Shown: positions 11,175 through 43,605 of the stretch, in pieces | How positions within the stretch are numbered: position 1 is the first letter of the stretch | Layout: every line of letters starts with the position of its first letter | From: Callorhinchus milii | Lineage: Eukaryota | Reading direction: 5' to 3' | Length of the DNA stretch: 64,000 nucleotides | Assembly (NCBI RefSeq): GCF_018977255.1 | Contig: NW_024704742.1 | Span: 109,122,001-109,186,000, forward strand | Notes under the pieces: model-generated | Seen by the model: the letters and a program-made list of their open reading frames with translations, nothing else | What the model was told of the DNA's origin: nothing | Databases searched by the model: none | Made by a program: the position numbers and the translations under genes

Positions 11175-13230
11175 ATTTATGTAGCACCCTCCACATCTCA
11201 GAGTGCTTAACAATGTCTGATTCCGAGCTGGGGAAGGTGGGGGAGAGGTGGCCGGAAGTACGTTCGAAGAGAAAGGTTTTCAGGTGGGATTCAAAAAAGG
11301 GGAGGGGGCAAGGTGGAGGGAATAAGGGAGTGTTCCAGAGTTTTGGGGCATAGTGGCTGAAAGCGTGACCTCCGATGGTGGGGCGGAGGATGCTAGGGAC
11401 GAACAGGAGGCCGGTGCCAGGCGAGCAGAGTTGCTGGGTGGTGGATTTGGGAGTGAGGAGGTCGGAGATGTAGGGAGGTGCCAGAGAGGGAATGGATTTG
11501 AATACGAGTGTGAGGATCTTGAAGTCGATCCGTTCGGTGATTGGGAGCCAGTGGAGCCTGGCCAGAACTGGTGAGATGTGGGTGGGTATGGAGTTTGTTC
11601 CGGTTAAGTGTGCAGGCGGCAGAGTTAATAATAATAATAATCCTTGCATTTGATATAGCGCTTTTCACGTCGGGAGGATGTCCCAAAGCGCTTCACAGAA
11701 CACACTGTAAAGTGAATTGACTGTATATTTGTGGGCGAACGCGGCAGCCAATTGCGCACAGTAATGTCCCACAAACAGTCGTAGATTGAAAATGACCAAT
11801 TTATTATTGTTTTTGGTTTCGGAGGGATTATTATTAGGTGTGTGGAGTAAGGAAACTTGCCCAAGGTTTCGCCCTGCCTGGAATTGAGCTCAGGTCTCTC
11901 ACTTGCAAAGTGAGTGCTCTAACCACTGAGCTACAGGACTCCACAACTTCACAGTTCTGAATAAGCTGGATCTTTTGAATAGTCGAGCTGGGGAGACCGG
12001 CAAGGAGTGTATTTGAGTAATCCAGGCGGGAGGTGACAAACCATGCACGAGGGTTTCGGCGACATTTGGGGTAAGTTATGGTCGGAGTCGGGCAATGTGG
12101 CAGACGTGGAAGAAGGCGGTCTTGGTCAGCGACCGGTTCTGGGGATGGAAGGACAGCTGGGGTTGAACTGGACACCTGGATTGCGCACTGGTTCAGTGAA
12201 TCTGAGGGAAAGCCCAGGGAGATTGAGGAGTTTAGATCTGCAGGAATGAAGACGTTGACAGGAGCCCAGGAGTATGGCTTCCATCTTGTCCAAATTCAGC
12301 TGCAGGATGTTTGCACTCATCCAGGCCATAATGTCTGCCAGACAAGCTGATAGAACATCGGGGACCTGGAGTTGGTACTGGAGGAGGCAAAGTAGATTTG
12401 TGTGTCATCTGCATACATGTGGAAGTTTACCTCGTGTCTGCGGATTACATCGCCCAGAGGGAGCATATAGATAAAGAAAAAAAAACGGCCAAGGATGGAG
12501 CCCTGGGGTATCCCACAGGTGACCGGGCAGGGGCGGGAGGAGAAACCATTTGCCGAGATGAAATGGAGGCAGTTGGTTAAGTAGGACTCAAACCATGCAA
12601 GTGCGGTCCCACTAACGTGGATGAGGGAGGAGAGGCAGTGGAGGAGGATGGTGTGGTCGACCGTGTCGAATGCGGCAGAGATCCAAGAGGACTAGGAGGC
12701 AGAGGGAACCCTGGTCACAGATAGAGAGGATGTTGTTTGTGACTTTGACAAGCTCTGTCTCCATGCAGTGGGCAGGGCGAAAACCAGATTGCAGGGGCTC
12801 AAGGAAGGAGTGAAAAAAGAGGTGTGACTGAAGTTCCTACAACAATGCGTTCCAGGACTTTGGTAAGGAAGGGTAGGTTGGAGATGGGATGGTAGTGTGA
12901 GAGATTAGAGGGATGGTTTTTTTGAAGAAGGGTGTGATAACAGTGGTTTTCAGTGGGCGTGGAGCAGAGGCTGAGGAGAGACTGGTTGACTGTGTCAGTC
13001 AGCAGGGAGGAGAGAAGGGGGAGTTGAGTGACCAGCACTGGGTGGGGAGGGTATCGAGGCAGCAGGTGGTGAACTTGATCCCAGTGATTGTAGTTGAGAG
13101 GGAGGGAGAAATGGAGACAAAGGAATGTAAGGAGGGGGGAGTGGCAGGAGCCAAGGCAGAGGGAGAAGGCAGTGTGGATGGTCTGGGTGAGGTGAAAGGG
13201 GACATGGGGGGGCTGTTGCAGCCAAGCAGG
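11175..13230 (-). mobile_element. L2 LINE ORF2 3' portion (RT plus C-terminus), decayed, SINE-interrupted
   Basis: PISNLPFLTKVLER, LQLNLDK, SRLDYSN, LHWLPITERIDFKIL and AFSHYAPKLWN motifs. Confidence 0.9.
11627..11944 (-). mobile_element. SINE nested in an L2 LINE
   Basis: Full reverse copy; L2 sequence resumes on both sides. Confidence 0.9.
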
Positions 13231-13556
13231 TAATTCTCACCCAGAGATAAGATACCGTGACAATACCGTAGCCCCTCCCTATCTCTCTGATCTCCAATCC
13301 CACCAATCTGCTTGGTCCCTCCATTTGGCTAGCAGCGCTTGCTATGCATTCTTTATAATCAGACTAAACAATAAATATAAGGCTATTCAACCACTTAGCA
13401 TTATAGACAAGATTAATCCTGTTTTTATTAGACATCCTCAAAAACAAAGCGTCCCTCACCCTGTATACTCTTTAATGCTGATTTTAATGAACATCCTGCA
13501 GATTTAAAGAGAACATAAGAAACGCTGGACGAAAGAAGACCAAGCTCCATCTAGTT
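12675..13556 (-). repeat. Copy A of a ~885-bp near-identical inverted duplication
   Basis: ORFs 12799-13507 mirror ORFs 42193-42904 almost residue for residue. Confidence 0.93.
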
Positions 13557-14050
13557 CGCCTTCCATCTTCCTGGCAGTTGCATGCACATATGTCCCAAAC
13601 TACCTATGTATTATATTCCATAATCTTATTTCCTGAAAGAAAACTAATCTGTGTTTGAAAGAATCAACACTTACTGCTTCAACCGTCTCCTTAGGTAGCC
13701 TGTTCCACTGGTTCACTGAAATAGTGTTTGCGTAGATTTGTTCTGAATTTCCCCTTCAATCTCAGGCCGTGTGCTGTGGATTTACTATTCTGGACAAGGT
13801 GAAATAGCCTGTCAAGATCTATATTGTCTAGCCACTTTAGAATCTTAAAGACAGCAATCATGTTGTCTCTCAATCTTCTCTTTTCCAGCGTGAACATGCC
13901 CAATTTACTTAGTCACTCCTCACAGTCCAGTCCGTCCATCATTTTGGTTGCCCTTCTCTATATTTTCTTGATTTCTCGAATATCCTTTTTGTTCTGTAGC
14001 GACCAGAACTGTTCATAGTACTATAAGTATGGTCTCACCAATGATTTGGA
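13510..14050 (-). mobile_element. CR1 LINE 3' fragment
   Basis: GMFTLEKRRLRDNMIAVFKIL; same family as 63210-64000. Confidence 0.85.
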
Positions 14051-15283
14051 AATACTTTTTATATGCTTTAAAATACAAAGGAGGAAATTGCATAGTAATT
14101 ATATTCAAATATCATACAATTAAATTATTGCTCTAATCATAACACAAACAAACAAGATTAAGTGCAGCAGTAGTATATTCAATTTATATTTTTTTCTTCA
14201 AAAGTGTCTCCTCTGTTTGGTTTATCAAGTCAAAACCTCTCTGCTGCTGAAAGAACAGTCAGTGAGCCTGTTACCAGAGCATATTCAATGCCAATAAGAA
14301 AAACGTTCAGAATGTACTAGAGAATACCATTTCTAATTTTCCTGCTGTGTTCTCCCAATCTTATATGGAGATGTTGCAGCTTTTCCTCATTGCACCTCCA
14401 ACAGCACAATGAAGCAGGCCAGTGTTTGCTGATTGAAGGGAACAGCTAGGATGGTAGGGTTGCAGGAGATTGCAGAGGTAGGATGGGGTGAGGCCAAGGA
14501 ATGATTTGAATGCGAGGATGAGGATCTTGAATTTGAATGTGGAGAAAGTGCAGGTGAGAGAGGATGGGGATGATAGACTCACTGAGCTTGATGTAGGAGA
14601 AGATACAGACTACAGAGCTGTGGAATGGTCTGCAGCTTGTGTGGGAGAAACTGTGGAATCTAGTGACTAGTTAAATGTCCTTTCTTTACCTCCATTTGAA
14701 AATAAAAATTGGAATGAATTATTTTGTTTTGTTTCCATCGCTTTAAAAAGAGCAAAATATATATATATACACACACATACATACACATAATGAAGCAAGA
14801 CGAATAAAGGAGGGTGGAAAACATAATCACAGAACTTCATATCAGAGAACCAATTGGTCCACTGTGCCTAGGCTAGATTTCTGAAAGAACTATCTATTTA
14901 GTCTTCCTTCCCTGCTCTTTTCCTATATCCTTTTAACTTTTTATTTTTAAAATCCAGTATTTGCTTTTAAAAGCAGGGATAGGGTAGTTAGACATTGGTC
15001 TGGCTGTTCATATAGATTTCATCACTAACTGTCAAATGATTGTACAATAAAATAAAATAGGTTGCTGGCTGGTCTGGTGCAAAAATTACCAAATGTCAGA
15101 CCCAAACATTGCTATTGATTAACTATAATATAATTGTCACATTTTGGCATTGAGCTATTGACCATGTTTTATTGCCTGCAATAAACTCACTCATAATAGA
15201 CCCACAACCTTAAATTTCTAAAAACAATGCCTCTATGAGAAGTACATTTAAATGTAGATTTTGCAATCAGTTGAGAATACACA

Positions 15284-15579
15284 TTAAAATTGAGACCCGT
15301 ATGCGTCAGTACCAAAACAAAGCCACTGTTCAATAGCATTTTGATAGGTCATGGGATCCTTTTGCCAGTCCTGGTGCCATCTGAGGTTGGCAATCACATT
15401 TGTATAATTCTCTCCTACACTTTCTTTCCAATTGGTGAACTGTAGTTTGTTGTATCGATGAACACTTTTGGATACCTCTGGGTAGTTTAATATTGAATGA
15501 AGCTTCCCATCCAGAATGTTTGTAACTTCTGGATATTTTGTAGCTACATTTGTTAATTCATCTGGATCGGCAATCAGAT
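15284..15579 (-). CDS. ARSK: ARSK exon 8, last coding exon (DLIADPDELTNVA...WHQDWQK...GSQF*)
   Basis: CAG acceptor; TAA at 15286-15284; candidate AATAAA on the minus strand at 15173-15168. Confidence 0.95.
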
Positions 15580-16086
15580 CTGGAGAAGGAAACAAAATAC
15601 AAGTCCTGGGTCAACAGAAATAATAAAAATAATATAACACCTCTATTTAACTAGCAGTAAGTAGGAACCCTGCTGTTAGTCGATTAGTGAATCACTTTTC
15701 CATGTGTAATAATTCCTTAAAAATAATAAATTGGTCACTTCAATCCACGATGTTTGTGGGACACTACTGGGCGCAATTGGCTGCTGCATTTTGCCCACAA
15801 AATATACAGTCAATTCATTTTACAGTATATTCTGTGAAACACTTTGAGACATCTTGAAGACTTGATAATACTTGCATTTGATATAGCGCTTTTCAGGTCT
15901 TCACAGAATCGCTATATCAAATGCAAGGATTATTACTATTATTATGTAGCACCATTATCACATTGTTGAGACAGCTCAAAGCAAATTTTACTGTGCAGTG
16001 ACTGTGTATTTGTAGGCAAACATGGTAGATAATGTTCCCTCATCAACACCCCACAACACCCATGAAGTGAACAACCAATTTCATTA

Positions 16087-16185
16087 CAAAAACAGAAGTC
16101 ACTGGGAACACTCAATAGGTCAGGCAGTATCTATGGAGAAAGTAAAGCGAGTCAACGTTTCGGGTCCACAACCCTTCATCAGCGC
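16087..16185 (-). mobile_element. Single arm of the same Penelope-type element
   Basis: The minus strand reads CTGATGAAGGGTTGTGGACCCGAAACGTTGAC. Confidence 0.7.
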
Positions 16186-17607
16186 TTCATCTCAAAGCAC
16201 TTCACCAATTTTAATATGTGGATTGCCAACCATGACAATGGGAGAAACTCCCTTATCTTTTTGAACAGTGCCTGACAGACAATATCTCAATTTAACATTT
16301 ACATGACAATGCAATGTACCCCAAGCATTGTATTGGGATGTCAGACAAGAGGTTGAGTCTGAAGCCCCAATGTTGGGATTAAACCTACAAACGTTTGACT
16401 TAGTAATGAGAGTGCAACCAATTACGCCATAAATGAGTTTAAACCAAACATCTAGGCATGTTAAATTATGAGCAAACATCTTTGAAATTTGTTTTCGTTA
16501 ACGAATGATTATGATGCATCAAATTAAATAGTAGGCATTTACAAGAATCTACTTAGATACTACAGATGAATCTAAGTTGAAATGAATGTCTCAGGATACA
16601 ACAGAGGCAGAAGCAGTCCATTTTCTAAAAGGTTTATTTCTAGAACATATGTACTTGCTGCTAACCAGCATAACATAAGCAAGCCCAGTAAACTGTTAAA
16701 GTGCTTACAACAATCACACTTTACACACAAATACATTGTGACTCAATATCATTCATCGTTAGTACAAGTGTGACCTTCTCTTCCATTGACAAGAGAATTT
16801 GGTATTCAGCAACAATGCCCTGTAATGTTACTTGAAAATGACAGGATGGAAAATAATTAAATTGTATACAACATTAATACATTCAGTTTTTAATTTGCAC
16901 AAGCTCGAAATCTATGACTGGATATGTACAACGATTCATTAAAAAAAGTAAACGTTTTAAAATTCCAAGAAATTAATTTTTTTTAAAAAATGATAAGGCA
17001 CAAGGATTATTATTATCATTAATTATTATAACGTCTTCCAATTCTGTCTTTAAATCTATTGAGGTAATGAATCTTTTGTTATAATTATAATTATTTAAGT
17101 TATAATTATTAGATGGGATAAGTGAGTTCCTCTTTTTTCCTGTTTTTGAATCAATGCTCAAAATGCAGTAGTACTTACAATTTCAAGAATGCCAATTTTC
17201 AAAAACAACTCAGTTTTTTGATGAGGAAGATAAAGATAGAAAATTTGACAATAATTTGTTGAATCAATCTTAAGTCTCGAAGAGAAATCAATAAGCTGAA
17301 TAGCCCATTAGCACAAATTCGACCTGCTTCTACTGGAGTAAAGATTTTTTTTAAATTGTAAATTTTTCTTCTAATATGAAGCTTACACATCTTTATATGT
17401 GTTACAGATGGTTTTGTGTGGTCTGGAAAAGGAGATAGGATGAGTGGCCTTTTCTCATTCCATAATGTATGAATTCTGCTGTCGCTCATTTAGTTGGGAG
17501 TAGAAAAGATAACTTAAATTATTCAAATTTATTTCAAAGCTGAAATTTACATTCTTAAAGTCTAAGTTTACAACTAACGTTCACATTATTCAATATCAAA
17601 TATTCAT

Positions 17608-17884
17608 AATAATAATGATCTTTGTATTTGATATAGCGCTTTTCACATCTTCTAGACGTCTCAAAGCGCTTCACAGAATAAACTGTAAAGTGAATTGACT
17701 GTATATTTGTGGGCTAAATGCTGCACAAACAGTCGTGGATTGAAATGATCAATTTTTTTTTGAGGGATCATAATCAGACATGTGGAGTAAGGAAACTTGC
17801 CCAAGGTTTCACCCTGCTGGGAATCAAACCCAGATCTTTCGCTTGCAAAGCGAGTACTCTCACCACTGAGCTACAGGACTCCAC
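17608..17884 (-). mobile_element. SINE, same family, internally deleted
   Basis: Reverse head CTACAGGACTCCAC and tail. Confidence 0.85.
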
Positions 17885-18129
17885 TCATGTCTTCCACCAA
17901 AACAGCTTCATGTGAGGGTGCACAATATCAATTCTGAAACAAGAGACTGGATACTGCAGCCTTATATTTTACCAGTAATTAATTAAAATTCCTAGCTGTA
18001 AATTCAAATGGTGACCACCAGTCTGTGCAGACCTCAATTGCAACCAGTTGGTGCATTTCCTTCAGTTGGGAAAATTGGTGCTAAGGTGGGATAATTATGA
18101 GGTTAGAAGAAATTTGGACTAATCAGCAA

Positions 18130-20120
18130 TCTGGAAGTTAAGGCTCCTCTCGAGTGACCATAACATGATGGAATTTAACATTAAGTTAGAGTGATATAGT
18201 TGAATCCGAAGTAAGGGTCTTAAATTTAAATAAAGCCAACTTTGCAGGTGTGAAGAGAAGATTTGGCTAAAATAGACTGGGAAATTAGATTACAAAATAT
18301 TACAGTAGACCTGCAATGGCAAATGTTTAAAGATATAATAAATAATTCCCAGCGATCACATATTCCCTCGAAAAATAAAAATACCATGCAAATGTGGTTC
18401 AACCTTGGTTAACTAGAGAAGTTAGGGAAAGTATAAAATTAAAAGAAGAGACCTATAATACTGCCAAAAAGAGCAGTGAACCTGAGGATTGGGAGGGCTT
18501 TAGAGATCAGCAAAGGAAAACCAAGAAACTGATTAAGAGGGAGAAAATGGAATAGCTAGGAACATAAAGACAGATTGTAAGAGTTTTTACAAATACATAA
18601 AGAGGAAGAGACTATCAAAAGTGAATGTAGGTCCATTGTAGGCAGACAGGAGAAATTATAACGGAAAATAAAGAAATTGCAGAGTCATTAAACAATTATT
18701 TTGCTTCTGCCTTCACGTTAGAGGACACTGAAAACTTACCGAAAATAAAGGGGAACCTGGAGGCTAATGTTAGTGAGGAACTTAAAGAAATGAACATCAG
18801 TGAAGCAATAGTACTAGAGAAATCGATAGGATTAGAAACAAATAAATCCCCTGGACCTGATGGCCTGCATCCTAGGGTTTTAAAAGAGGTGGCTGCAGAG
18901 ATAGTGGATGCTTTGTTTTTGATCTTCCAAAATTTCCTGGATTCTGGAACGGTTCCCACTGATTGGAAGGTCGCAAACATAACGCCACTGTTTAAGAAGG
19001 GTGGGAGACAAAAAATGGAGAACTATAGACCAGTTAATCTGACATCGGTGGTAGGGAAAATTCTAGAGTCCTTAATTAGGCAGGTCGTCGTGGGCACTTA
19101 GAAAATCATAACATGATTAGGCAGAGTCAGCATGGCTTTACAAAAGGGAAATCATGTTTAACAAATCTTATAGAGTTTTTGAGGATGTAACTAGCAGGTT
19201 AGATAGGGGGATCCAGTAGATGTGGTGTATTTAGATTTCCAGAAGGCAATTGAAAAGGTGCTACATAAAAGGCTGTTGCATGAGATTAGAGCCCATGGAA
19301 TTAAAGGTAATATATTAGCCACTCTCCAATCCATGCTAAGAGCAAGAAAACAGAGAGTAGGGATAAACGGGTCCTTCTCAGATTGTAGGATGTGACTAGT
19401 GGAGTGCCACAAGGATCAGTGCTTGGGCCTCAATTATTTACAGTCTATATCAATGATACAGATGAAGAAATAGAACTTAACATATTTAAATTCACAGATG
19501 ATACAAAGACAGTAAGGAGAGGAAGCTGTGAGGATGACACAAAAGGAATGCAAAGGGAAATAGACAGGCTAGGTGAGTGAGCAAGAAGTGGCAGACGGAG
19601 TATAACGTGGGAAAGTGTGAAGTTATTCACCTAAGTAGTAAAAATAGAAAAGTGAATTATTTTCTGGAGGGGGAGAGACTAGGTAGTGTTAGTGTTCAGA
19701 GGGATTTGGGTGTCCTTGTACACCAGTCACAAAAAGTTAGTATGCAGGTACAGCAAGCAACTAGGAAGACTAATGCCATGCTGCGTTTGTTGCAAACGTT
19801 TAGGGTACAAGAGTAGGGAAGTCTTGCTGCAGTTGTATAAGGTCTTGGTGAGACCGCACCTAGAATACTGTGAGGAAACATTTCTTCACTCAGAAGGTAG
19901 TGAATTTGTGGAATTCTCTACCCCAGAAGCTGTGGATGCTCAGTCCTTGAACATATTAAAGACTGAGTTTGATAGATTTCTAAAGGATAAAGGGATTAAG
20001 GGATAATGTGAATAGGGCACGTAAATGGAATTAGGTTAGAAGATCAGCCATGATCTTATTAAATGGCGGGTAGGCTCGAGGGACTGAATGGCCTACTCCT
20101 GCTCCTGTGTCTTATGGTCT
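18130..20120 (+). mobile_element. CR1 LINE ORF2 fragment (RT) with frameshifts and an internal deletion
   Basis: KSPGPDGLHPRVLKE, NYRPVNLTS, SGVPQGSVLGP, FTDD, VRPHLEYC. Confidence 0.93.
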
Positions 20121-21559
20121 TATTAGTCAGACACAACCTAATCCAGTTCCAAAGCCAGGCGAGTTCGCAGTACTCTAGAGCACTGCTGATGACAGCCCAG
20201 CTAGCCTGGCTCATCAGCAGGACTTGGAAGGGCAGACTGCAGAGAGAGACTCTTCCCACATAGCTCCTGTTTAACCTGCAACCCAAAGACCTAACCTCTG
20301 GGTTCCTCAAATCTTTGTCTTGCAAATTTGAATCTAATACTCTCCAGAATTAGGTAAGCAGGATGTGTCCCTCAGGGAGAGAATTCACATTCTATGCCAT
20401 AAATAGCACAGGAATTTCCATGTATAGGTGGGATGAATGGAACGCTCAATTTGGTTTGGATACTCTAATGAATGGTGATGGTTTTCCACGTGTGTCATAT
20501 GCATCATGCGCCAGGCTAACCCCTACAAATTGCATTATTCCATATAATGTATGGAACTCAGGTGGAGATCAGTAAATCTTTATATTGACTCATATAATTA
20601 CTTTCTTTAATTCCAAAGAAATACTGGAATTAATGTTGTATTTAATTAATGTAATTTTTGAAAAAAATGTTTCACTAAAGGTACACCTGGAGTGAAAAAT
20701 ATTTTTTCAAAAAGTAAATAGATGCAAATAAATGCTGCCATTTAACATTACTGAGTCTTTCCATCTTCACTCCAAATGGAACCAGTTTTACTGTCACCAG
20801 GAATTAAATACCGCTTTGACACAGACATAATGAAGTTAGATATACAACAATTAATGGGTACTCTGAATTGCAAGTCCTTTTGAGTTAAGTGCCGAGAAGT
20901 CAATACACTTGAATTAAATCACTTTGATCAGAATACTATAAATGTGCTAAGCTGATACCTTTCAGATAGCTAGAATTTAAAAATGGAAAAATATAGAATA
21001 AATAACCAAATGTACTAGATGGCTGATTCAAAATGATAGATTCATTGGAATATTAATTATAACAGTAATCATGGCATCTGGCAATGATTAAATTATAGAG
21101 GTGTCAGAGGATTTTACAAATCTAGGAAAGCTAGAGTAGTTTAACATAAGAATTCATTACCATAAAACACTCAGCCCATTAGCTCCTCTCCTTTAGACCA
21201 CACAAAATCAACCTCATCATGCATATAATTCCTTTCCTACTTTAATGATAATTACATTTGGTAGAATCATATAACATTTTTAGTTTAAAATATGTTATAC
21301 CAAGGTTTTAAGGAATGATTGCTTCCCAAGTCAAGTGAAATTTGATGCTGGATTGTTGCACGTACTCATTATCAGTCTGTGAGTGTCAGTGCTTTTGACA
21401 TGTTTCTTATAAGAGCTCAGTGATATTTCACATCATCTAATTTTTCCATCATAACACTAGAACTGCAGATACAAGGGTTGTGACTTTACACCTGAGTTGT
21501 GAGTTGAGACCAACAAATATTCCAAATATTGAGCTCAGGCTCATGTATCTGTAGTGCCT

Positions 21560-22332
21560 CCACACCTTGGGCGCTGGCAGCATGGCTGCACACTCAACCT
21601 CACCAAGCCAGTCAGGAACCTGGGTGTCTTATTTGACCCTGAACTGTCCTTTCTCCCCCACATCCGCACCATGACCAGCACTGCCTACCACCACCTCCGC
21701 AACATTGCCAGACACTGCCACTGGCTCACCCCTCAGACTGCCGAAACCCTTAGCCACGCATTTGCACATCAAGACTCGATTATGGAAATTCCCTCCTTCC
21801 CAACTCTTCCCTTCACAAGCTGCAGATCATCCAAAATTCTGCAGCTTGTGTACTCTCACGCACCAGGCTCCGTGACCCAATCACTCCCACCCTCGCCCGA
21901 CTTCATTGGCTCCCCATCCCTCAGAGGATCGAATTCAAGATCCTCATCCTCATTTTCAAGACCATCCATGGCCTTGCCCTCTCCTACCTCTCTGACCTGA
22001 CCCTACCAACATGCCTGCTCCCTCCGTTCAGAGGGCTCCGGCCTGCTCCATGTATCCCGCCCGACCCACCCTACCATCGGTGGCCAAGCTTTCAGCCTCT
22101 GCCCCCACACTCTGGAACTCCATCCCACAGTACCTTTGCCTCGCTTCCTCCCTTGCCTCTTTCAAGGCCAGTCTCAAGACCCTCTTCTTCGATCGTGCCT
22201 TCAGTCGTTCTCCCACCTCTCTGCCTTCCCTCACCCCTCCCCCATGCTTGGGTCCTGAACCCTGATGGTCCAGTGCCTTGGGACGTCTTCCCGACGTGAA
22301 AGGCGCTCTATAAATGTAATTTTGTTGTTGTT
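21560..22332 (+). mobile_element. L2 LINE 3' fragment with (GTT)n tail
   Basis: VRNLGVLFDPELSF; 3' stem-loop tail. Confidence 0.88.
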
Positions 22333-25644: not shown

Positions 25645-28037
25645 TCGTCTCATGCGGTATTTCTCAGGGCTCTGTCCTTGGTCCCCTCCTCTTCAGTATC
25701 TACATGCTCCATCTTGGTTGGAGATTGTGGAGTCCTGTAGCTCAGTGGTTGGAGCACTCGCTTTGCAAGTGAGAGACCTGAGTTCAATTCCAGGCAGGGC
25801 GAAACCTTGGGCAAGTTTCCTTACTCCACACGCCTAATAATAATCCCTCCAAAAAAAAAAACAATAATTAAATTGGTCATTTTCAATCTACGACTGTTTG
25901 TGGGACATTGCTGTGCGCAATTGGCTGCCGCGTTCGCCCACAAATATACAGTCAATTCACTTTACAGTGTGTTCTGTGAAGCGCTTTGGGACGTCCTCCT
26001 GACGTGAAAAGCGCTATATCAAATGCAAGGATTATTATTATTATTGGTTACATCATCCATAGACATGGGGTCAACTTCCACATCTATGCGGATGACACCC
26101 AACTCTATCTCTCTGCCTCCACCCTCGATTCCAGGACTTCTGCTGTCCTGACAGACATCAAGTCCTGGATGAGAGCTAACTACTTTCTATAGTTGAATGC
26201 TAACAAGACCGAGGCCCTCCTGATTGGCTCGCGTCAGTGCTTCCACACCTCAGGCGCTGACAGCATCACCATCCAGGGATGCACACTCCACCTCAACGAG
26301 CCTGTCCAGAACCTTAGAGTCTTGTTTGATCCTCAACTGTCCTTCCTACCCCACATCCGGGCCATGACCTGCTCTACCTTCCTCCACCTCCACAATATCT
26401 CCGGCTCCGCCACTGCCTCACCTCAGGCCGCTGAAACCCTCACCCATGCGTTCAATCACATCTAGGCTCGACTACGCCAACTTCCTGCTTGTCAGCCTTC
26501 CCAAATCTTCTCTCCACAAGCTCCGTATTATCCAGAGCTCTGCAGCTCGTGTCCTCTCCTATACCAGGCTCCGTGCCCCATCACCCCCATCCTTGCCCGG
26601 CTCCACTGGCTCCCCATTCCCCAGAGGATAGAGTTCAAAATTCTAGGACTCACCTTCAAGGCCCTGCCACCTGCTGACCCCATATCAACCTGTCCGCTCC
26701 CTCCGTTCAGCGGGCTGTGGCCTGCTCCATGTACCCCGCCCGGTCCTGGCCCATCAGCTGCCAGGCCTTCATCCTTTCTGCCACCTCCCCACGGAATTCC
26801 ATCCCACATTCCCTTCACATTGCTTCCTCCCTTGCCTCCTTCAAGGCGCATCTCAAAACCCCCCTCTTTGACCGAGCCTTTGGTCACCCTCATACCCCCA
26901 GCTCAGGTCCAAATCCCTGACTGTCCAGCACCTTGGGACATCCTCCTGACGTGAAAGGCACTATACAAATGTAATTTTGTATTGTAGCTTCGTGGTTCTG
27001 TCCTATCCTGGTTTTATACTTACCTATCCCAACATCTTGCCTTTATTGCTTTTAACAGCTTTTGCTTCCTTGTTTCTTCCACACGAGTTCCTTATTGGCT
27101 CGGTCCTCTCCTCTTCACTATCAATATGCTTCCGCTTGGCGATGCCATCCACAGACATGGAATTCACTTGCACATGTACGCAGACGACACCCTCTCTCTC
27201 TGCCTCCACCCTTGATTGACCACTGTTGTTCTGACTGATTGCCTGACAGACTCAAGTTCTGGATGAGAGCAAACTTTCTTCAGTTGAATGTCAACAAGAC
27301 AGGCATTCCTGCTTAGCTCCAGTCAGCAACTTCTTGCCCAAGACATTAACAGCATCAGCCTGCATGGATACACATTTCACCTCACGGAGCCTTGGTGTCT
27401 TGTTTGACTACCAAGTGTCTTTTAAACCCCACATCAGCGCTCTGATCTGCTTTCCTGCCTCCGTTACTACCTCTTGCCGTGGGCTGCCAATACCCTCATC
27501 CATGCCTTTATCAAGTTCAGGCTTGACTACACCAATATTCTACTTACTGGATCACCCAACTCTTCACAAGATGCAGATTATGCAGAACTCTGCAGTCAGT
27601 GTTCTTTCCTGCACTAGTTCCCGCAAGCCTATCACACCATCCTCGACTGGCTTCATTGGCTCCCCAGTCCCAAGCGGATCAAGTTCAAGATCCTCATTCG
27701 CACCTTTAAATCCCTTTATGGTCTCATCCCATATGGAGCAGGCCATAGCGGAGGGAGCAGAACAGGTTGATACAGGGTCAGCAGCCTGCAACCTCCTCAA
27801 ATCGCACTGGCCTGCGTCATGGTCCCCATTCTACCTGCCCCATCATCCTTCCTTCCCCCACTTTCTAGAACTTCATCCCAGAGTTCCTCCGACTTGTTCC
27901 CTCCCTCACCTTGTTCAAGGTACTTGTCAAGATCTCCTTCTTTCACTGTACTTTCTGCCACCTTTCCTCTGCCCACCGCCCTCAACTCACAGTTCAGGTG
28001 CCAAACCAGTATATTAAGCACCTTGGGATGTCCTCCT
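25645..28037 (+). mobile_element. Two consecutive L2 RT-to-tail fragments (25645-26980 and about 27070-28037)
   Basis: YADDT-type motif twice; SRLDY, LHWLP-like segments and a tail in each. Confidence 0.82.
25727..26043 (+). mobile_element. SINE inserted into an L2 RT fragment, candidate TSD TTGGTT
   Basis: TTGGTT at 25714-25719 and 26044-26049; splits QGSVLGPLLF from YADD. Confidence 0.9.
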
Positions 28038-31797: not shown

Positions 31798-32058
31798 TAT
31801 ATTAAAACTTTAAGTTAAGGTGGCATTCAGTGAACTCATATCTACTCATCAAAACGATAAGACAATTGAACAAAATTCACTTTAAACCTTAAAACTATCA
31901 GAGGTGAATTTTATCCTCTCAGTCTGGTTAGATTCAAATTCACCTTTTAAAGATTAAAGGGCAATCCGATAATCATTGCACTAAATCATTGAATCACAGC
32001 TTCAATTTTAGCCACACTTTTTTTTCTGTTAGTCTTAGACCAATAATATTATACTTAC

Positions 32059-33715: not shown

Positions 33716-33941
33716 ACACAAAAACAGAAGTCACTGGGAACATTCAGCGGGTCAGGCAGCATCTATGGAGAAAGGAAAGTGAGTCAATGTTTCGGGTCCA
33801 CGACTGTTTCTGATGAAGGGTTGTGGACCCAAAACGTTGACTCCTTTCTCCATAGCTACTGCCTGACCTGCTGAGTGTTCCCAGCAACTCTGTTTTTGTT
33901 TTCAGATTTCCAGCATCTGCAGTATTTTGTGTTTTGTTTTT
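33716..33941. mobile_element. Penelope-type palindromic non-autonomous element with 16-bp TSD and hammerhead-like core
   Basis: Inverted arms; ATTAATATACCTTTGA at 33700-33715 and 33942-33957; CTGATGA-AGGGT..ACCC-AAAAC. Confidence 0.75.
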
Positions 33942-35723
33942 ATTAATATACCTTTGATTACTAATAACTTATTTTTGTATTAATGAAAATCGATAATTCT
34001 TATGTATAACTATAATAATGCATTTTTTTTAAGGTAATTTGTTTTTGGTCGTGCTTTTAATCATATGGTGGTTTATAGTATAGCCATATGGCTGCTATGG
34101 TAACAGATAGCATGCTTGGAGATGCTGAAAACCAGCATGATGGTGTTCGATTTTCTTTCTGTAGCAGAAGCATCTTCTGTTTATGGTACTGACGTCACCT
34201 AAAGCTCAGTGGGAAATGCTATGGTTACAGCTGTCACTCCTAATACTGAGAACATTGCTGCAATCCCCTCCAATTGCTAGTGCACCTAATGGAAAAAAAA
34301 GTATGATTTTGTGAAATTGTGCATTCCATATATCTGGGATTATTTATCAGCATCATATTGATGACCATATGTAGTGTGTTGTACAATTCAGGCTATTCTG
34401 AATGAATAATACATTTTAAGATAATGTAATACTATAGTTTACTGCTTTTTCATAATTTTGGGCTGCAATTCAAGGTTCTTTAACAGATAAATGTCAGCTC
34501 ATGCAATGAAAAAATGTCACAATATGTAGTCTTGTAAATCATTAAGTATTGTTCCCCCCTTCCCATTTCTATATGCTGTGCTCAAATTGGCTTCTGCGGT
34601 TGTTTACAAATGCAGTCACTACAATGAACAGAACTTAATATGAAGCTATCAGTCTTTCCTATACTAAATGGAAAGACTGATAATTATAGATTACTCAAGC
34701 TCTGCACCTCTAACTGGAAGAACCATTACTCAATGCGTAGATATGTGCGACTGAGCTGTGGGCAGGAAGATGGTGACAATGTTCTCACACATTTCACATT
34801 GAGCTTTGATTCTGGTACTTGCCATCCACTGAGGGAGGGATGAAACCTGCACTTGATGGATGTTAAATGACGAATTAGTGACTATCCTCTTTCCAGGGGT
34901 CGGTATGAGGAGGTAAACAGGGTCTCATTAGAGCTGAACTGGCTCCAAGGTGACATGTGAGGGAATAGAATGTTGGAATTAAGTCAACCCTCTTTGGTGA
35001 TCTCGACAGTCCAGTTCCTGCACCAGGTGGGTTCACAATAATCCAGGCTGCTGATGACAGCCCAACCAACGTGGCTCATTAGTAGGAATTGGAAGGGCAT
35101 ACTAGTCACTGGGGGCAGTGATTCTTCCCACTTAGTTCTTGTTAACACTGCAACCAAAGCCCCAATGGGATAAGATGGTCCTTGCTGAACTTCCAATGGT
35201 AAACTCCAGCAGTACCCTAATGCATACTTTGGGATCCCAAGCTTTCTTCTTGCCAAGATGTGCTTAATAATCTCCACAATTAGGATGCATTCCTCCAGTG
35301 AGAGTGTGTGCAAATCATTCCAATATACAGGAATGTCCATGTGTAGGTAGGCTGCATGGAAATTTCAGTTTGGTTTGGATATTCTTTCCGCATGTGTCAA
35401 CAACAACAATTTGCATTTATGCAGCATCCCTCATGCAGGGTAGCGTCCCAGAGCATTTGACAATGGCAGAACATGATGCTAAGCTGGGGGGAGGTGACCA
35501 TAGGCATAGTCAAAGCTGAATGTCTTCAGTTGCTACCTGAAGATGAGGAAGGAAGGGGCAAGGCGGAGGGATAGAGGAAGAGTGTTCCATAGATTCTGGG
35601 CATAGTCGGTAAAAGCGTGGCCACCGATGGGGGAACGGAAGGTACAAGGAACGGGGAAAGAATGTAAGCACAGGAAAAGACAATGAGTATACCTGTGACC
35701 ATCTGAAGCAGTGAATCACTTAC

Positions 35724-35895
35724 CAAGCATCAAGTCCATTTCAGCACACATTGCATAGTAAAATGCTCGAATGTTCTTAATTTCCTTTTGAGTGAAATCG
35801 CTGGTACAGTTTTTTGTATAGGAGGAATAATAATCTACAGGGTGCATTTCAAAGAAAGGAAGCCATTTTGGAATAGAGACCAGTTCGTATGACAC
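35724..35895 (-). CDS. ARSK: ARSK exon 5 (VSYELVSIPKW...FYYAMCAEMDLML)
   Basis: Translated by hand; CAG acceptor, GTAAGT donor, 172 bp. Confidence 0.95.
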
Positions 35896-36164
35896 CTGAA
35901 ATTAGGGTTAGGATATTTAATCAGACACTGAGAAATTGATCAAATGAATACTGATTGGTGAGTTTTAACATTATTATTCTGAAAACTTATTCAAGTTAAA
36001 AAATATCATTAGATATCTATTACAATTATATACAAGTTAGCATCTGGTACTCAACCCCATTGATGATGGATGCCTTGTGTATTTGCATAAACATTAGACA
36101 TATAAATGTACAGCAAATATTTTTTTTGAACAGATGAATTTATCTCCATTCTAATGGAGATCTA

Positions 36165-36526
36165 GTGGAGTCCTGTAGATTAGTCGTTAAAGCACTCGCC
36201 TCGCAAGTGAGAACACCTGGGTTTGATTCCTGGGTGGGGCAAAACATTGGGCATGCTTCCTTAATCCATATGCCTCTGTTTACCTAACAGTAAGTAGGAA
36301 CCTGGTTGCGGATCGCTTTTATGGGAATAACAATCCCTTCAAAAAAAAATAAAAAATTTGGTCACTCAATCCACAACTGTTTGTGGGATACTGCAGTGCA
36401 CAGTTGGCTGTCGCATTTTGCCTACAATATACAGTCAATTCACTTTGCACTATATTCTATAAAGCACTTGTGATTTCTAGAAGACGTGATAAGGCGTTAT
36501 ATCAAATGCAAGGATTATTATTATTA
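36165..36526 (+). mobile_element. SINE, same family
   Basis: Head to tail visible. Confidence 0.87.
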
Positions 36527-37033
36527 ATCTCCCAGCATGTTCCTCTCAATCTTTGTTCCAACGAAAGCAGGTTCAGTTTGCAAATCTCTCTTTAAAATGG
36601 AGCAAAGATCTAGAATCAGCCCACTCAGTCTTATCTGAGCACTTTCCAATACATCAATATTCCTTTTAAAGTAGTGTCCAAAATTATCACATTTTAAAAT
36701 GTGCCCTTTGCCAATGAGTTATAAAAGGTTGAGACAAACTACAGTGCTGTAACCGAATACTATGGAGTTATATCTGAGCAATTGGTTATTCCTGTTCACA
36801 TTGCTCAGATAGTGAAAGTTTATGATGAATATTCAAACACCAAATCACTTCCAATGTCTGAGGAAGGATAAAAGTAAAATAGTGCTTTAAATAATAAATA
36901 ATTCCACAGGTTTTTGACCAATTTACTGGGAGATATCTAATTAAATTAAACATTGCACTACTCACACTGTGCGCATCTATACTCTTTTGATCAAATACAA
37001 CTTTGGATTGGACGTTCCACAACAATTGTGTAC

Positions 37034-37316
37034 CTTTTTGAGCCAGTAAGGAGAGGTTTTAAATGTGGAACCTCCACATGCTTCTCCCATACTTGGAGTT
37101 GGGTAAGGATGAGGCAAGTTCAGACCTAAGCTGAGAACAAATGGTTGACTGAGCTGGGTTGCTTTGTATCTTATCCATTCTACTGCTTTATCGGTGTTCT
37201 CCCAATCACGATCCATGACTCTCACAGTTGTCTCATTACCAACCAGAGCTGTTGTTGGCCTCCCTTCTTGTCTCAGCAAAAATTCAACATCCCTGGTCCA
37301 AGCCTCCACACGGTTA
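37034..37316 (-). CDS. ARSK: ARSK exon 4 (NRVEAWTRDV...LNLPHPYP...YWLKK)
   Basis: Within ORF 36977..37345; CAG/GT boundaries, 283 bp. Confidence 0.95.
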
Positions 37317-38608
37317 CTGAAAGCAATGATAAGTGACAAAAGCAAATTAAAACTCTGTGGATATTAAAGAGCTTGTATGCCTTTTCAGCTGGATATCAAA
37401 GATCCAATGGCACGATTCGAAAAGAGAAGGGAGTTTCTCCCGGCCAACAATCCCCCAAATAAAATTGGTCACTCACTCCATGACTGTTTGTTGTACATTG
37501 CTGTGCGCAACTGTCTGCTGCATTTCACAGTCAAACCACTTTACAGTGTATCCTGTAAAGCACTTTGAAATATCTCAACAACGTGATAGGGCACTTTATC
37601 AAATGCAAGGATTATTATTACTCTAATATTTGTTATTCACTAATTTCCTATAATGTATAAACCAGTAATCGAAATGTTAAACAAAACAATTAATCACTTC
37701 CCCAAGAAAGTTTGGTTGATACCAAATGCCAAATCTTTTCCACAGCCTTTTTGTAAAAGACAGAAGTGGGTGATAGGGCAGTCATTTGGAAGGTCAGCTA
37801 AAATAAAACAATTTGCAATAAACATAAAAGACTAAGTTATTATAAAGTTGAAGAAATCTATTTTTCCCAAAAGCATGCAGGAGAGGAGTGCCCTCCTATG
37901 ATATTATTTTACCAGGTCACAAATCTGATGCACTGAGAGAACAGGAAGCAAGTCAAGTCTGTTGCCAGGTATCATTATATGATTTGTAGTCAGGAAGCCC
38001 ACCACAGCCTCCTCATTTGAGTTCCAACCGGTCCCATTAGAGGAAGATACTGAACCTTCACTCAATGTCTTTACACTACATGGTAGTTCAATCACAAAAT
38101 GAAGGAGGAAATAGAGCTTGCTTCCTTCCACTCCATAGTTCCTTAATTGAGCATTTTAATCAGCATTGTCCTTCAGACGATAGACAAAATTGGCATCTTA
38201 TAACTGGCTAGTTTTCCACTCCCTAATCCTGGAATGTTTGGGGACAATACCCATGCAGTCTCAGCTGAGACCAACAATCTTAGCACAGACCAGGAATTTG
38301 AACCAATGATCTCCTGGTCTGTAAATCGCAGCTCTATCCACTATTACACCATCATTTATATTTGGGACGTCCTCCCTACATGAAAGGCGCTCTATATATG
38401 CAATCGTTGTTGTTGTTTCAGTGTAGATGTACTACCTTTATAGCTTCTACATCCTACTATAACTAATATGGGCATACATGATTTACTAACCACCAGGGAA
38501 AGTATAGTTATTAAGCATGTGACAATAAATAGACTTGTTTAGTCAAAAGAAATGTTTAGAAAAATTCAAAAGAAATATGATCACTGCAAGTTTAAATGTG
38601 CTTCCTAC

Positions 38609-38768
38609 CTGATTGAATGGTGCCCAGAAGTGTAATCAGTCTTTCCATACACCTTTGTGTAGTAGCCATAATTTTTCAGAATGTCCATCCAGGTCGGGTA
38701 ATCATTGCTTAGGCACTTGTAATTATTCCATGATTCAGTTAAATGAGGATAGAGACCGCTCCACAGGG
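38609..38768 (-). CDS. ARSK: ARSK exon 3 (ALWSGLYPHLTESWNN...DYTSGHHSIS)
   Basis: Within ORF 38605..38817; AAG acceptor, GTAGGA donor, 160 bp, phase-consistent. Confidence 0.93.
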
Positions 38769-39579
38769 CTTTTTTTAAAAAAAAATGTGTATCAATACAA
38801 CACTTCCATATATGCACTTGTTTTAAAATGACTATGCATTAAAACAAATATTTGTTTAGGGTAGGAATCAGAATTTTAGAAAGAAAAAAAATCATACTTA
38901 GCCTTCACAACAAAAGCTGGATGACAAAGCAAATGAGAGCAATTGCCTGGGCAAACATTTGTTGTTCCAAGGTGCTTATGTCCGGATAACATTTATTTTA
39001 GTGTTTTTATGTGCAAGGCTTACATTGAATTCAAAAAATGTTAAATCATTTTACTCACTAGCTAAACTAAATTGAATAAAACATGGTAACCCTCATTGTG
39101 TCCTGAAAAGGACTTCAGTATTCTGTCTTCAGAAACAACCTCAGTTATCAAGATAGATAGTTATAAATTTAACTACCACGGGTACCTGTCTTTTTTAGAA
39201 CGTGTTTGGATTCTCAGCAAATAACTCACAAATCTCTGTTTAGTGGAAGTTTTGCTCGGTCTAAACCTTCTTACGCATTGTGAATAAACCAAATCACTTA
39301 TTTTGACTTCCACCTGAATACATATTTTAGATCTCAGACAGATTGAACATTTAGTCCTCCTGACTTGAAAGACGCTATATAAAATTAAATTGCATTCTCA
39401 GAAAAGGCAATTTCAGCAGCTGTCCCAAGTAGAGACCTTCCAAAATGTCAAGATTTAACATGCAGTTTTAAAATTTGTGGTAACTAGATTTAAATTTCAC
39501 ATAAACGGAATGCAGTCACAATATATGATCATGTTGAGCCTGAAGCAAAACAAATTTGTCCTAATAATTAGCTTAATAA

Positions 39580-39905
39580 GTGGAGTCCTGTAGCTCAGTG
39601 GTTAGAGCACTCGCTTTTCAAGTGAGAGACCTGAGTTCAATTCCAGGCAGGGCGAAACCTTGGGCAAGTTTCCTTACTCCACACGCCTAATAATAATCCC
39701 TCCAAAACCAAAAACAATAATAAATTGGTCATTTTCAATCTACGACTGTTTGTGGGACATTGCTGTGCGCAATTGGCTGCCGCGTTTGCTCACAAAAAAA
39801 TGTACAGTCAATTCACTTTACAGTGTGTTCTGTGACGCGCTTTGGGACATCCTCCCGACGTGAAAAGCGCTATATCAAATGCAAGGATTATTATTATTAT
39901 TATAA
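39580..39905 (+). mobile_element. SINE, young full-length copy
   Basis: Near identical to the copies at 1735 and 25727. Confidence 0.9.
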
Positions 39906-41684
39906 TATGTCCCACCAGAAGAACAAAAGTAGGCCTTTTCAGCAGACTTGAAATTTAGCCAAAAGAACAGTTGAAATCACAGGTACAATTAATTCCTTTA
40001 ATTCATTTGCTCTTTCTTAATCAACAATCATACTTTTTCCTATCATAATCTTTAATGTCTTGCCTTACCAGCACCTTAGGACGTCCTTCTGAACTGAAAG
40101 GCGCTTTACCTAATGTAATTTTGTTGTTATTGTTGTAAATCGCTTGATTTTTTTTAAACATCCCATCCACTTTTATAACCATTGGTTATTTCCTTGGATC
40201 TGTTTCATATTGCCAAACAAGATATCACAACAAAATATGCCAACACTTCCTCGAAGATGCAATGAATTATGTTTTCTGACTATCTATTTAGGCGGTTTTA
40301 AATTTCTAATTGTTAAGATGCACAATACATCTTACTTAAATTTATAATGAAAGATCATAGTAGTAACAAAAAAAATCTTTGGACTTTACAAAAACTGTTT
40401 AAATTCCTTTAAAAAATTTAGACTTTTGTAATCCTGCTTTCAACACATGGAATTTCAGTGCTATGTTGATAAATTATAGTTTTTGAATTCTAGTTAATGC
40501 AAATAGAAGACAGTGTCTCTAGCCCTTGACCTTTGAATAATATCAAGCACACACAGTTTGGAAATGTTGTGTTGCTAGGGAAAATCCCACCAACATTTTG
40601 GCGTCCTTGTTGACGTCAACACTGAACCTCAGGTGGTAACATAACATCAAAGAACAACCACTACATATCTTTTCTAAGGCCGAACTGTCTGGACATTCAT
40701 TTAAATAACGGTTCAGCAGCTGGGTTAGGAACCAAGAAGTAATTTCCGTTAAAGTGTGCATTGAAACAAATGCACATTTCATCTTAAATTCATCTTAAAT
40801 ATGCCCTCTGAATAATATCCTGCATCTTAGTGCTATTACAATCAAAAGAACTAGTGATGCTAACCATGTTGCAAGATCATGTAGGAATATCAATATAAAC
40901 AAATATTTCAGCTCATTTGATCAGCCCTCTTTACACCATATATATTTCACCAAAATGAAGGGCAAGTGAAATGCTTCTAGGATTTCTCTTTTAGGAGTGT
41001 TTAGAAGAGAAACTTATTTACCCATCTATTTTTTTCTTCTTCTGGGAAAGGGTCTTTATTTCACTGTCCATCCCTGACTTCTCTAACTGAGACTTGGATG
41101 CATATATGAGAAATTGGTTCAGTACTTGTATCGTCATATTCAGTGGTGCAGACAGATTTTTAATGATAACCATCCAGTCACTTTCTTTATTTACCATCTT
41201 GATGTTCCTTCAATGTTATGCCAAATATATATACATCCATCCCTATATGCATTTTTTTCAATTTTGTATCATTATTGCAACTAGAAGAGCACTTTCAAGT
41301 GAATTTAAAATAATATATACATAGCATAGTGATGGAATTCTAATACAGCAGTGTTGTATTGCACTCTTTTTGTTTTGGGCCTTGTGACTTGTTCAGATTT
41401 TGGCTACACTGTGCTTAGACTAAGCGCTCGGAGATGCTTCTCCATGATAAGGGCACGATATAAATGCAAGTTGTTGTTGCAATCTGTACCACAAATAGTT
41501 CAGAACCAGTCATAAAATCTTGATATACAGATGATCATCCACCACTTCCATACCTCCAGGATGACGTGTTCACACTGAACACCAGGAATCTTATGATTTG
41601 TATCACACTCACTCGGTTGGTTGCACTCCTTCTGAGTCAGAGAGGTTTGTGGGTTCAACCCAATATTGGAACTTTGAGATCATA

Positions 41685-43605
41685 GGGCAGCTTGGTCCAC
41701 AAGGCGGCCCATGGGCTGCAACCTGCCCGGTGAATAATTTTGTCTGGCCGCAAACCATTTCCTACTTCACTGCTTTACCTCTCCGCTGTGCCTGTTTTTC
41801 AGTCGGTCTCTATGAGACAGCGCGGAAAGTGACAGGATGAGGGGTGGAGCTGCAGCGCGAAACCTTGGGCAAGTTTCCTTACTCCACACGCCTAATAATA
41901 ATCCCTCCAAAACAAAACAATAATAAATTGTTCATTTTCAATCCACGACTGTAGGACACTGCTGTACGCGATTGGCTGCCGCGTTTCACCCACAAACATA
42001 CGGTCAATTCACTTTACAGCATATTCTGTGAAGCGCTTTGAGACGTCTAGAAGACGTGAATAGCGCTATATCAAATGCAAGGATTATAATTATATGTGCA
42101 TGCGGGACATATGTGCTTGTGACCGCCAGGAAGGTGGAAGGCAAACTAGATGGAGCTTGGTCTTCTTTCGTCCAGCGTTTCTTATGTTCTCTTTAAATCT
42201 GCAGGATGTTCATTAAAATCAGCATTAAAGAGTATACAGGGTGAGGGACGCTTTGTTTTTGAGGATGTCTAATAAAAACAGGATTAATCTTGTCTATAAT
42301 GCTAAGTGGTTGAATAGCCTTATATTTATTGTTTAGTCTGATTATAAAGAATGCATAGCAAGCGCTGCTAGCCAAATGGAGAGACCAAGCAGATTGGTGG
42401 GATTGGAGATCAGAGAGATAGGGAGGGGCTACGGTATTGTCACGGTATCTTATCTCTGGGTGAGAATTACCTGCTTGGCTGCAACAGCCCCCCCATGTCC
42501 CCTTTCACCTCACCCAGACCATCCACACTGCCTTCTCCCTCTGCCTTGGCTCCTGCCACTCCCCCCTCCTTACATTCCTTTGTCTCCATTTCTCCCTCCT
42601 CCCTCTCAACTACAATCACTGGGATCAAGTTCACCACCTGCTGCCTCGATACCCTCCCCACCCAGTGCTGGTCACTCAACTCCCCCTTCTCTCCTCCCTG
42701 CTGACTGACACAGTCAACCAGTCTCTCCTCAGCCTCTGCTCCACGCCCACTGAAAACCACTGTTATCACACCCTTCTTCAAAAAAACCATCCCTCTAATC
42801 TCTCACACTACCATCCCATCTCCAACCTACCCTTCCTTACCAAAGTCCTGGAACGCATTGTTGTAGGAACTTCAGTCACACCTCTTTTTTCACTCCTTCC
42901 TTGAGCCCCTGCAATCTGGTTTTCGCCCTGCCCACTGCATGGAGACAGAGCTTGTCAAAGTCACAAACAACATCCTCTCTATCTGTGACCAGGGTTCCCT
43001 CTGCCTCCTAGTCCTCTTGGATCTCTGCTGCGTGGACCTTGGTCATTTTTAATCTAGCATTTCTTATGTTCTTAAGATATCCTCTGGCTTTGCCCCTCCC
43101 TGTTATTTTGCATTAAATATTCTGCCTAAAGCCTGTATTTTGCAATTTTAAAACTACAGAATTATGAGTCTCAGTAGGAAATGCAAGATAGATATAGAAA
43201 ATAGAGGATTTTAGTGTAAGTGGTTTACTTGTTTATTGGAAGTAATGGAAAACCTCAGTCCCTTGTTTGCTTGCAAGTCATATCTGTGTTAAGGAGTTCA
43301 AAGTTCATTTTACAATTATGGATTAATCTGTTTTGGTTTTGTTGAGTATTCTCTGTAGGGGTCACCATACGATGAGTTGATATCTTGTGTTTTGACTTCA
43401 ATACATTAAAAAATTATTTGCATATATTTCCATTTGAGATTATATCATTACCTAATACAGTCATACAATTTAAACATAGGATTTCTGTATGATCTTTTAT
43501 GTTTCTGGAAGGGAAAAACTAAAGTATTGCTTATGCGTCCTGCGGACGTTTTTCAAATGTGGCATTCGGCCCTCAACATCAACCACAAATGTTGGATCAC
43601 CTTAG
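41685..43605 (+). mobile_element. Decayed hAT-like DNA transposon containing nested insertions, itself inside an old Deu-type SINE
   Basis: GCGGCCC-type subterminal motifs at both ends (41703-41750; 43535-43600); the SINE core resumes at about 43605. Confidence 0.55.
42144..43028 (+). repeat. Copy B of the inverted duplication, in ARSK intron 2
   Basis: The differences I saw were a 3-bp indel and a single substitution. Confidence 0.93.

Follow-up and report, generated by a model that had tools for sequence, protein, structure and literature searches.

An inverted duplication around ARSK exons 3–8 in the elephant shark and its probable origin in the repair of a DNA break

Described repair duplications and the locus studied

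In the main vertebrate survey of repair-mediated duplications (RDs), the human genome yielded 1,136 single-donor insertions that interrupt a transposon, of which 824, with a donor within 5 kb and lengths of up to 619 bp, were accepted as RDs (Pace, Sen, Batzer and Feschotte, 2009; PMC2671141). Another 58 intrachromosomal cases with donors beyond 5 kb make up a 'distant' group, for which the accessible text of the survey gives no further analysis. In that same text the 10 species covered include no cartilaginous fish, and the density of RDs per Mb of repeat DNA is 0.19 in zebrafish and 0.08 in chicken (PMC2671141). In duplication-dependent strand annealing (DDSA) a break within a repeat is mended with another, ectopic copy of the repeat as template (Fiston-Lavier et al., 2007; PMC3276153, PMC3420103), while in mouse cells copying by homologous recombination has been found to end by joining to the second break end (PMC5104497). 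Here we describe two near-identical inverted copies of about 885 bp, A and B, which bracket exons 3–8 of the arylsulfatase K gene (ARSK) of Callorhinchus milii. They lie in a stretch of 64,000 nucleotides (assembly GCF_018977255.1, contig NW_024704742.1, positions 109,122,001 to 109,186,000), referred to below as the window. Copy B is probably a one-off DNA-templated insertion, made from copy A during the repair of a break.

The window was assigned by protein similarity. A 110-residue frame had C. milii arylsulfatase K as the top match of 333 (98%), and the C. milii ARSK protein (P0001) aligned by tblastn to the minus strand as eight exons in the right order, at about full identity except at the exon edges. 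On these matches the 64-kb window is the elephant-shark ARSK locus. A literature search, the coverage of which mostly excludes subscription journals, gave no paper joining ARSK and Callorhinchus.

The inverted pair, its donor and its acceptor

A BLASTN self-comparison of the window matched positions 12672–13596 with 43031–42104 in inverted orientation, at 98.8% identity over 928 columns. The first-pass annotation of this DNA had described a near-identical inverted duplication of ~885 bp around ARSK exons 3–8, giving limits of 12675–13556 (882 bp) for copy A and 42144–43028 (885 bp) for copy B, and the comparison bears this out. Within those limits only two differences occur in 885 positions: a substitution (13318/42382) and a 3-bp indel (near 13101/42600). 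Exact inverted matches in the window reach 431 bp, whereas the longest in each of 10 base shuffles were 15–19 bp. Copy A is located downstream of exon 8, 1.7–2.6 kb past the ARSK stop codon, copy B is located in intron 2, and the gap between the arms is 28.5 kb.

Read on the minus strand at copy A, the unit passes from the 3' tail of a long interspersed nuclear element (LINE) through ~270 bp of non-repetitive DNA to an L2-like LINE fragment that bears reverse transcriptase (RT) sequence (~12672–13240). In agreement with the first-pass annotation, the unit is a chimaera and not one transposon, and it ends inside the RT frame. The proposed make-up from L2 and CR1 elements was upheld for the RT domain, which was recognised as Pfam RVT_1. 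Of seven frames compared with Pfam, one was assigned to RT and another to a rhodopsin-type receptor. Pfam does not separate L2 from CR1, and both clade names, which we take from sequence motifs, are given here as presumed.

The two copies differ in how their ends meet the surrounding DNA. The L2-like element at A extends to ~11950, with the breakpoint falling within its RT region, and the RT frame runs past that breakpoint at 12672 (Pfam RVT_1, E 1.9e-12, for 12317–12688). The CR1-like element at the opposite end continues from its tail into its own body, which is 80.7% identical to another copy at 63298–63716. At B both ends are breaks, and the RT frame stops at 43031. Because the retroelements at both ends of A continue past the breakpoints, A is, on this sequence comparison, the donor and B the acceptor, in agreement with the first-pass annotation.

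Copy B was found to sit inside the tail of a CR1-like element, of which there is no body beyond the adjacent short interspersed nuclear element (SINE) (Table 1). Along this tail the differences from A drop from 6 in the 40 positions of 42104–42143 to 2 in the following 885 (Fisher p 1.2e-7); the last six bases of the first half-tail, 42144–42149, are common to A and B, and the switch lies there. The second half of the tail is present twice. The inner one, 42150–42190, is identical to A at 41/41 positions and to an independent copy of the tail family (63218–63258) at 34/41, while the outer one, 43032–43072, is identical to A at 33/41 and to the independent copy at 38/41; the inner second half is therefore derived from A and the outer second half is B's own. 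When 42150–43031 was excised, the remaining 87 nt aligned without gaps to the 87-nt tail of A with 14 mismatches, the two tails being 84% identical and in the same register. Of 1050 pairs of cut points that were tried, this register scored best against the independent tail copy. The tail remainder, expected from the first-pass annotation at about 43033, resumes at 43032, and the flanking halves join in register. A direct repeat of 41 nt is associated with the insert; its reading as a target-site duplication fails, because the inner repeat matches A at 41/41 positions and the outer repeat at 33/41.

The distal joint of B is of a different kind. In this register no microhomology, poly(A), LINE tail, target duplication or lost target base was found there, and the last 20 bases of the insert contained no A/T run when poly(A/T) tracts of at least 5 were looked for. 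Position 43029 differs from A, either through a CpG transition or as part of a 3-nt addition.

The presence of copy B in other animals was examined in whole-genome runs, of which 24 were listed, 11 containing part of the stretch and 4 containing half or more. These four (X1–X4) represent four samples of one study, available as assembled contigs and not as reads, and were compared over 41200–44199. Contigs crossed 43031/43032 in all four (42999–43290, 42999–43112, 42960–43290 and 42999–43237, depth 4.6–6.5), reaching 33 bases or more to either side, and each sample differed from the window at other sites. Three of these contigs start at 42999, 30 bases ahead of the first B-specific base at 43029, and the contig shared by A and B starts at 42144 in 4/4 runs, immediately past the final difference in the tail; both starts are as expected for a 31-mer graph that contains both loci, and the second gives indirect support to the proximal junction of B. 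The X3 contig (42960–43290) begins 39 bases further left and carries three other letters, which suggests that this animal has extra variants in B or A near the distal junction.

The length-weighted depth of the listed shared contigs was 14.2, 17.2, 14.7 and 14.4, compared with 6.7, 7.7, 5.6 and 6.1 for single-copy contigs. The resulting ratio of 2.1–2.7 is not a copy number as such; it excludes a dispersed family but not strictly a third copy. True repeats in the same stretch reach hundreds to millions. Within the window the middle of the unit matches two places. No empty-allele joint was present among the 15 joints listed of 600. Because the contigs cross 43032 unbroken and an empty allele would create a branch at that point, we infer that the four animals lack the empty allele.

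At 42382 the base of A was read in 4/4 runs, and the two listed contigs that cover the indel (X3 and X4) are without the three bases of B. As contigs keep one allele where paths differ, the assembled animal may itself be the variant one at these two positions of the core. Full-depth variants at 42371 (X1) and 42364 (X4) were considered as a sign of conversion between A and B and were set aside, as contigs keep one path. Copies A and B differ at 1–3 positions in 882 bp (0.1–0.3%), and the runs differ from the window in the flanks at 1–6 positions per ~1670 bp (hand count). These divergences match, and by this measure the event dates to about the time at which present-day alleles last shared an ancestor, unless the copies were homogenised later.

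Table 1. Coordinates of the inverted copies, their component elements, the ARSK exons and the young SINE copies in the window.
Feature	Position	Strand	Basis or remark
Copy A, donor segment, 879 bp	12672..13550	-	Self-BLAST; flanking elements continue on both sides
L2-like LINE fragment in unit	12672..13240	-	RVT_1 match and self-comparison
Non-repetitive middle of unit at A	13241..13509	.	Within the window matches B only
CR1-like element at A	13510..14100	-	87-nt 3' tail 13596-13510 and own decayed open reading frame 2 (ORF2) end
SINE directly upstream of B's tail	41852..42093	+	85-88% to five other window copies
First half of B's own CR1-like tail	42104..42149	+	Alignment to A
Copy B, inserted 882 bp, ARSK intron 2, inverted relative to A	42150..43031	+	Self-BLAST, distal junction contigs
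Second half of B's own tail, in register	43032..43072	+	Alignment to A and independent copy
Third, independent copy of tail family, control for empty site	63218..63297	-	Self-comparison
ARSK exon 1	55298-55158	-	tblastn with P0001; outside pair
ARSK exon 2	53887-53753	-	tblastn with P0001; outside pair
ARSK exon 3	~38775-38611	-	tblastn with P0001; between copies
ARSK exon 4	37324-37031	-	tblastn with P0001; between copies
ARSK exon 5	35898-35707	-	tblastn with P0001; between copies
ARSK exon 6	~32284-32060	-	tblastn with P0001; between copies
ARSK exon 7	30173-29949	-	tblastn with P0001; between copies
ARSK exon 8	15580-15287	-	tblastn with P0001; between copies
Young SINE copies	1735-2058, 11626-11946, 25725-26045, 39576-39903, 46160-46427, 49408-49630	Both orientations	Self-BLAST

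Routes to the insertion

In the repair route favoured here, a break would have opened in ARSK intron 2, within the short tail of a dead CR1-like element. One of the break ends would have found a partner in the related tail of a second dead copy, 29 kb along the chromosome. Synthesis would then have run for 882 bases, through the rest of A's tail, the unique DNA and part of the L2-like element, after which the new strand would have been released and joined to the other break end without homology and with no loss of target bases. The homology-primed repair proposed in the first-pass annotation is borne out in its homologous, in-register tail junction; the sequence itself is compatible with a tail that primed the copying or one that finished it, and with break repair or a template switch.

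Copy B shares with the RDs a transposon split in register, and like them it has no poly(A) tail; RDs have their donor at a single further site of the chromosome, and for copy B one such site, A, is seen in the window, with a depth about twice that of single-copy contigs; in both, the split element tells donor from acceptor and the empty site is deduced from the element family (PMC2671141). RDs are insertions of at least 50 bp that split an element into contiguous halves, and here 882 bp lie between 42149 and 43032. They are also free of poly(A/T) and are neither nested transposons nor transductions, which agrees with a chimeric unit that ends inside the RT frame. The ends, as far as the available description of the RD set goes, give a mixed picture: RDs show microhomology of 2–9 nt, filler or deletion (PMC2671141), and copy B has family homology at one end, its proximal end having 6 shared bases within longer homeology and its distal end neither microhomology nor deletion but a possible 3-nt filler. 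With its donor 28.5 kb away, copy B works like an RD but belongs to the 'distant' group and not to the strict RD set.

DDSA is the closer mechanism. In DDSA the break lies in a repeat, the template carries the same repeat at the end of the duplication, and flanking unique DNA is copied conservatively from a donor that stays intact (PMC3276153, PMC3420103). At this locus the tails of A and B are of the same family and in the same register, unique DNA was copied next to the tail, and the elements of A are continuous at both ends. Of the re-invasion signatures of DDSA, copy B has one 3-bp tandem gain, which is missing from two contigs listed and is possibly an allele. The DDSA cases are segmental duplications of Drosophila with an intrachromosomal mean of 3.1 kb in the accessible parts of these papers, whereas copy B is less than 1 kb long, is found in a vertebrate and involves dead tails that are 84% identical. 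The repair observed in mouse cells is likewise similar in its homologous start, long copying and non-homologous rejoining to the second end, but it was experimental and used a sister-chromatid template with perfect homology (PMC5104497), as opposed to tails at 84%.

Several points weigh against break repair on A as the source of copy B. The perfect homology at the switch amounts to only 6 bases, set in a tract of ~46 that is 84–85% identical. The best register leads the next by one point (113 vs 112), because the control copy carries a 7-nt deletion. The empty site is a reconstruction, neither an empty allele nor an outgroup locus having been seen, and no contig over the proximal junction of B occurs among the 32 pieces listed (227,692 more exist), in which high-copy SINE matches dominate. 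With a donor 28.5 kb away and a length of 882 bp, the insertion also falls outside the 5-kb donor cut-off and the accepted maximum of 619 bp of the RD set (PMC2671141). Finally, in the available part of the mouse study 0/9 cloned joints were blunt and all had microhomology or added bases, while the distal joint of B is blunt or has at most 3 added bases, which counts slightly against reading this joint as blunt (PMC5104497).

A replication template switch of the fork stalling and template switching or microhomology-mediated break-induced replication type (FoSTeS/MMBIR) is an unlikely source of copy B. The nascent strand would in this case have left B at the non-homologous side and copied A from the L2-like part onwards, returning to B via tail homology; alternatively, the same path would have been taken in reverse, at a stalled fork and with no two-ended break. 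The same product is predicted, with neither loss nor duplication of the target, and the other two high-identity pairs of the window, described below, are likewise local and inverted. The distal junction would, however, lack the microhomology that such models usually need, and no sequence feature sets this route apart from break repair.

An RNA-templated insertion, in which a transcript through A was reverse-transcribed at a break in B with the cDNA end annealing to the tail of B, is rather improbable. The template would be CR1 or ARSK 3' read-through RNA, both on the minus strand, and the process would be akin to 3' transduction. As in a 3' transduction, the tail comes first and the downstream flank second; along the direction of ARSK transcription, A lies beyond the gene; and poly(A/T) tracts were present in 17/29 of the distant duplications inspected in the RD survey (PMC2671141, in its accessible text). 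Against this, the insert ends within the RT frame, and the poly(A) or LINE tail and the target-site duplication by which LINE 3' transduction and target-primed reverse transcription are recognised are missing from its distal end. The sole AATAAA in the unit sits 760 bases before its end, two further AATAAA signals lie between the ARSK stop codon and A, and the donor element is decayed, with stops and frameshifts. Several LINEs, moreover, require their own 3' end for reverse transcription (PMC3747384, as far as its available portion describes).

A unit that is itself a composite mobile element, or that exists in several dispersed copies, is very improbable; this is what was named beforehand as a refutation of a local event. 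Retroelement sequence is present at both ends of the unit, and the depth ratio of 2.65 in one run does not strictly exclude a third copy. A composite element would, however, be expected at many dispersed places with the same ends, while the depth of the unique middle is about twice that of single-copy contigs, the ends of the unit at A are not element ends, and within the window the middle occurs only twice.

That copy B is an assembly error, a chimeric join through the shared tail and the other refutation named beforehand, is scarcely credible, although the base of A at 42382 in 4/4 runs and the gapped X3 and X4 contigs at the 3-bp indel would be in keeping with it: the distal junction is bridged in four samples, the core depth is about double, and variation in the assembled animal may account for the missing differences. 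An origin of the pair as the scar of a staggered-break inversion of the intervening 29 kb can be set aside as next to impossible, for although such inversions are flanked by inverted duplications, ARSK exons 1–8 are collinear on one strand across B, and the elements at both ends of A, like the tail at B, pass without interruption into their own flanks.

Other local copies, neighbouring genes and consequences for ARSK

The window was scanned for pairs of at least 40 bp and at least 88% identity that match only each other. Four alignments were obtained, all of them inverted: the ARSK pair, a 196-bp receptor copy and two blocks of one CR1-like pair. The receptor copy (2192–2387 vs 3192–3387) is a 100% identical inverted copy of single-exon receptor coding sequence, which lies 805 bp upstream of its donor inside a SINE 3' tail, with few filler bases and ~7 tail bases lost. 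By its sequence it fits the proximal class of repair-mediated duplications; both ends of one copy are displaced by exactly 1000 bases from those of the other, and an assembly artefact is possible. The CR1-like pair (19506–19872 vs 51237–50871) consists of decayed copies lying 31 kb apart in inverted orientation, with a 365-bp block at 97.8% identity. Mismatches number 8/365 in this block and 30/410 in the adjoining blocks, which are 88–91% identical (p 0.001). A large deletion delimits this 365-bp block at either end, one in each copy, and the stops and frameshifts within it are the same in both; the block is likely to reflect ectopic gene conversion. The three pairs suggest a high density of local copying events in a slowly changing genome, as judged from a single window that was chosen by a reader and is a biased sample.

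A young SINE family of ~320 bp, with copies 92–97% identical in both orientations, is present within and around ARSK, and these copies are further, shorter inverted-repeat substrates around the gene. The receptor coding sequence belongs to an intronless rhodopsin-family frame of ~400 residues at 2663–3988 on the plus strand (Pfam 7tm_1, E 1.8e-47), which is probably GPR150 by synteny with ARSK. A (CA/CT)-rich, microsatellite-like array of 700 bp (3993–4688) starts five bases past its stop codon. On the other side of ARSK, the tetratricopeptide repeat (TPR)-bearing part of a fused ARSK protein model (P0086) gave weak tblastn matches at ~60494–60583 and 61892–61981 on the plus strand (E 0.007 and 0.1), head to head with ARSK. 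These are probably the first exons of the adjoining gene, presumably TTC37/SKIC3 by synteny.

The layout of the ARSK pair can be compared with that of int1h-1 and int1h-2 of F8, an inverted pair of 1041 bp with one mismatch and one intronic copy; recombination between them breaks the gene, and the inversion, which displaces exon 1 by 140 kb, is documented in patients (PMC8776779, in its accessible text). Both pairs are near-identical, inverted and ~1 kb long, with one copy in an early intron and the other outside the gene. Unlike in F8, the outer copy of ARSK lies downstream, 29 kb with exons 3–8 would flip, and no inversion allele has been seen. The human polymorphic inversions described in the available part of another study have longer repeats, of 1.6–24 kb (PMC3961182). 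ARSK exons 3–8 are collinear with exons 1 and 2 on the same strand, and the DNA between the copies is therefore not inverted. The window carries the standard orientation, and the contigs do not span the 880-bp repeat, so that the phase of the flanks is unseen in them. The first-pass annotation had called the pair a substrate for a 29-kb inversion that would disrupt ARSK. Its inverted layout is confirmed, and an ARSK-breaking inversion between the copies is a possibility by analogy with F8. In people, biallelic loss of ARSK leads to mucopolysaccharidosis type X (PMC9554054, in its accessible part).

Copy B itself contains one donor-like splice site (42473) and no strong acceptor in a scan of the ARSK strand. 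It might be speculated that B, in intron 2, forms an RNA stem with read-through RNA over A and so favours circular RNA or editing; the two AATAAA signals that precede A count against this. As it stands the product of the event is harmless and has no demonstrated function; it can serve passively as a substrate for ectopic conversion and, in rare cases, for inversion of exons 3–8. A broader reading, conceivable but doubtful, is that dead retroelement tails are frequent landing and priming sites for local copying in the elephant-shark germ line, leaving duplications and conversion tracts far denser than the 0.08–0.19 per Mb of repeat DNA of chicken and zebrafish (the 64-kb window has three high-identity inverted pairs), and that the ARSK pair, present in all four animals examined, is an F8-int1h-like substrate with recurrent inversions or ongoing conversion between A and B.

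The size and distance of the event exceed those of the set accepted in the main vertebrate survey, and it represents a known kind of repair duplication, of which it is an ordinary example. Its value, with neither a function nor an inversion shown, is that of an example and of a pointer to a genome-wide count. The ARSK pair provides a clean natural record, here in a cartilaginous fish, of a repair route known from experiments in flies and mammals, and on this reading a tail of fewer than 90 bases at 84% identity can direct a duplication on the kilobase scale.

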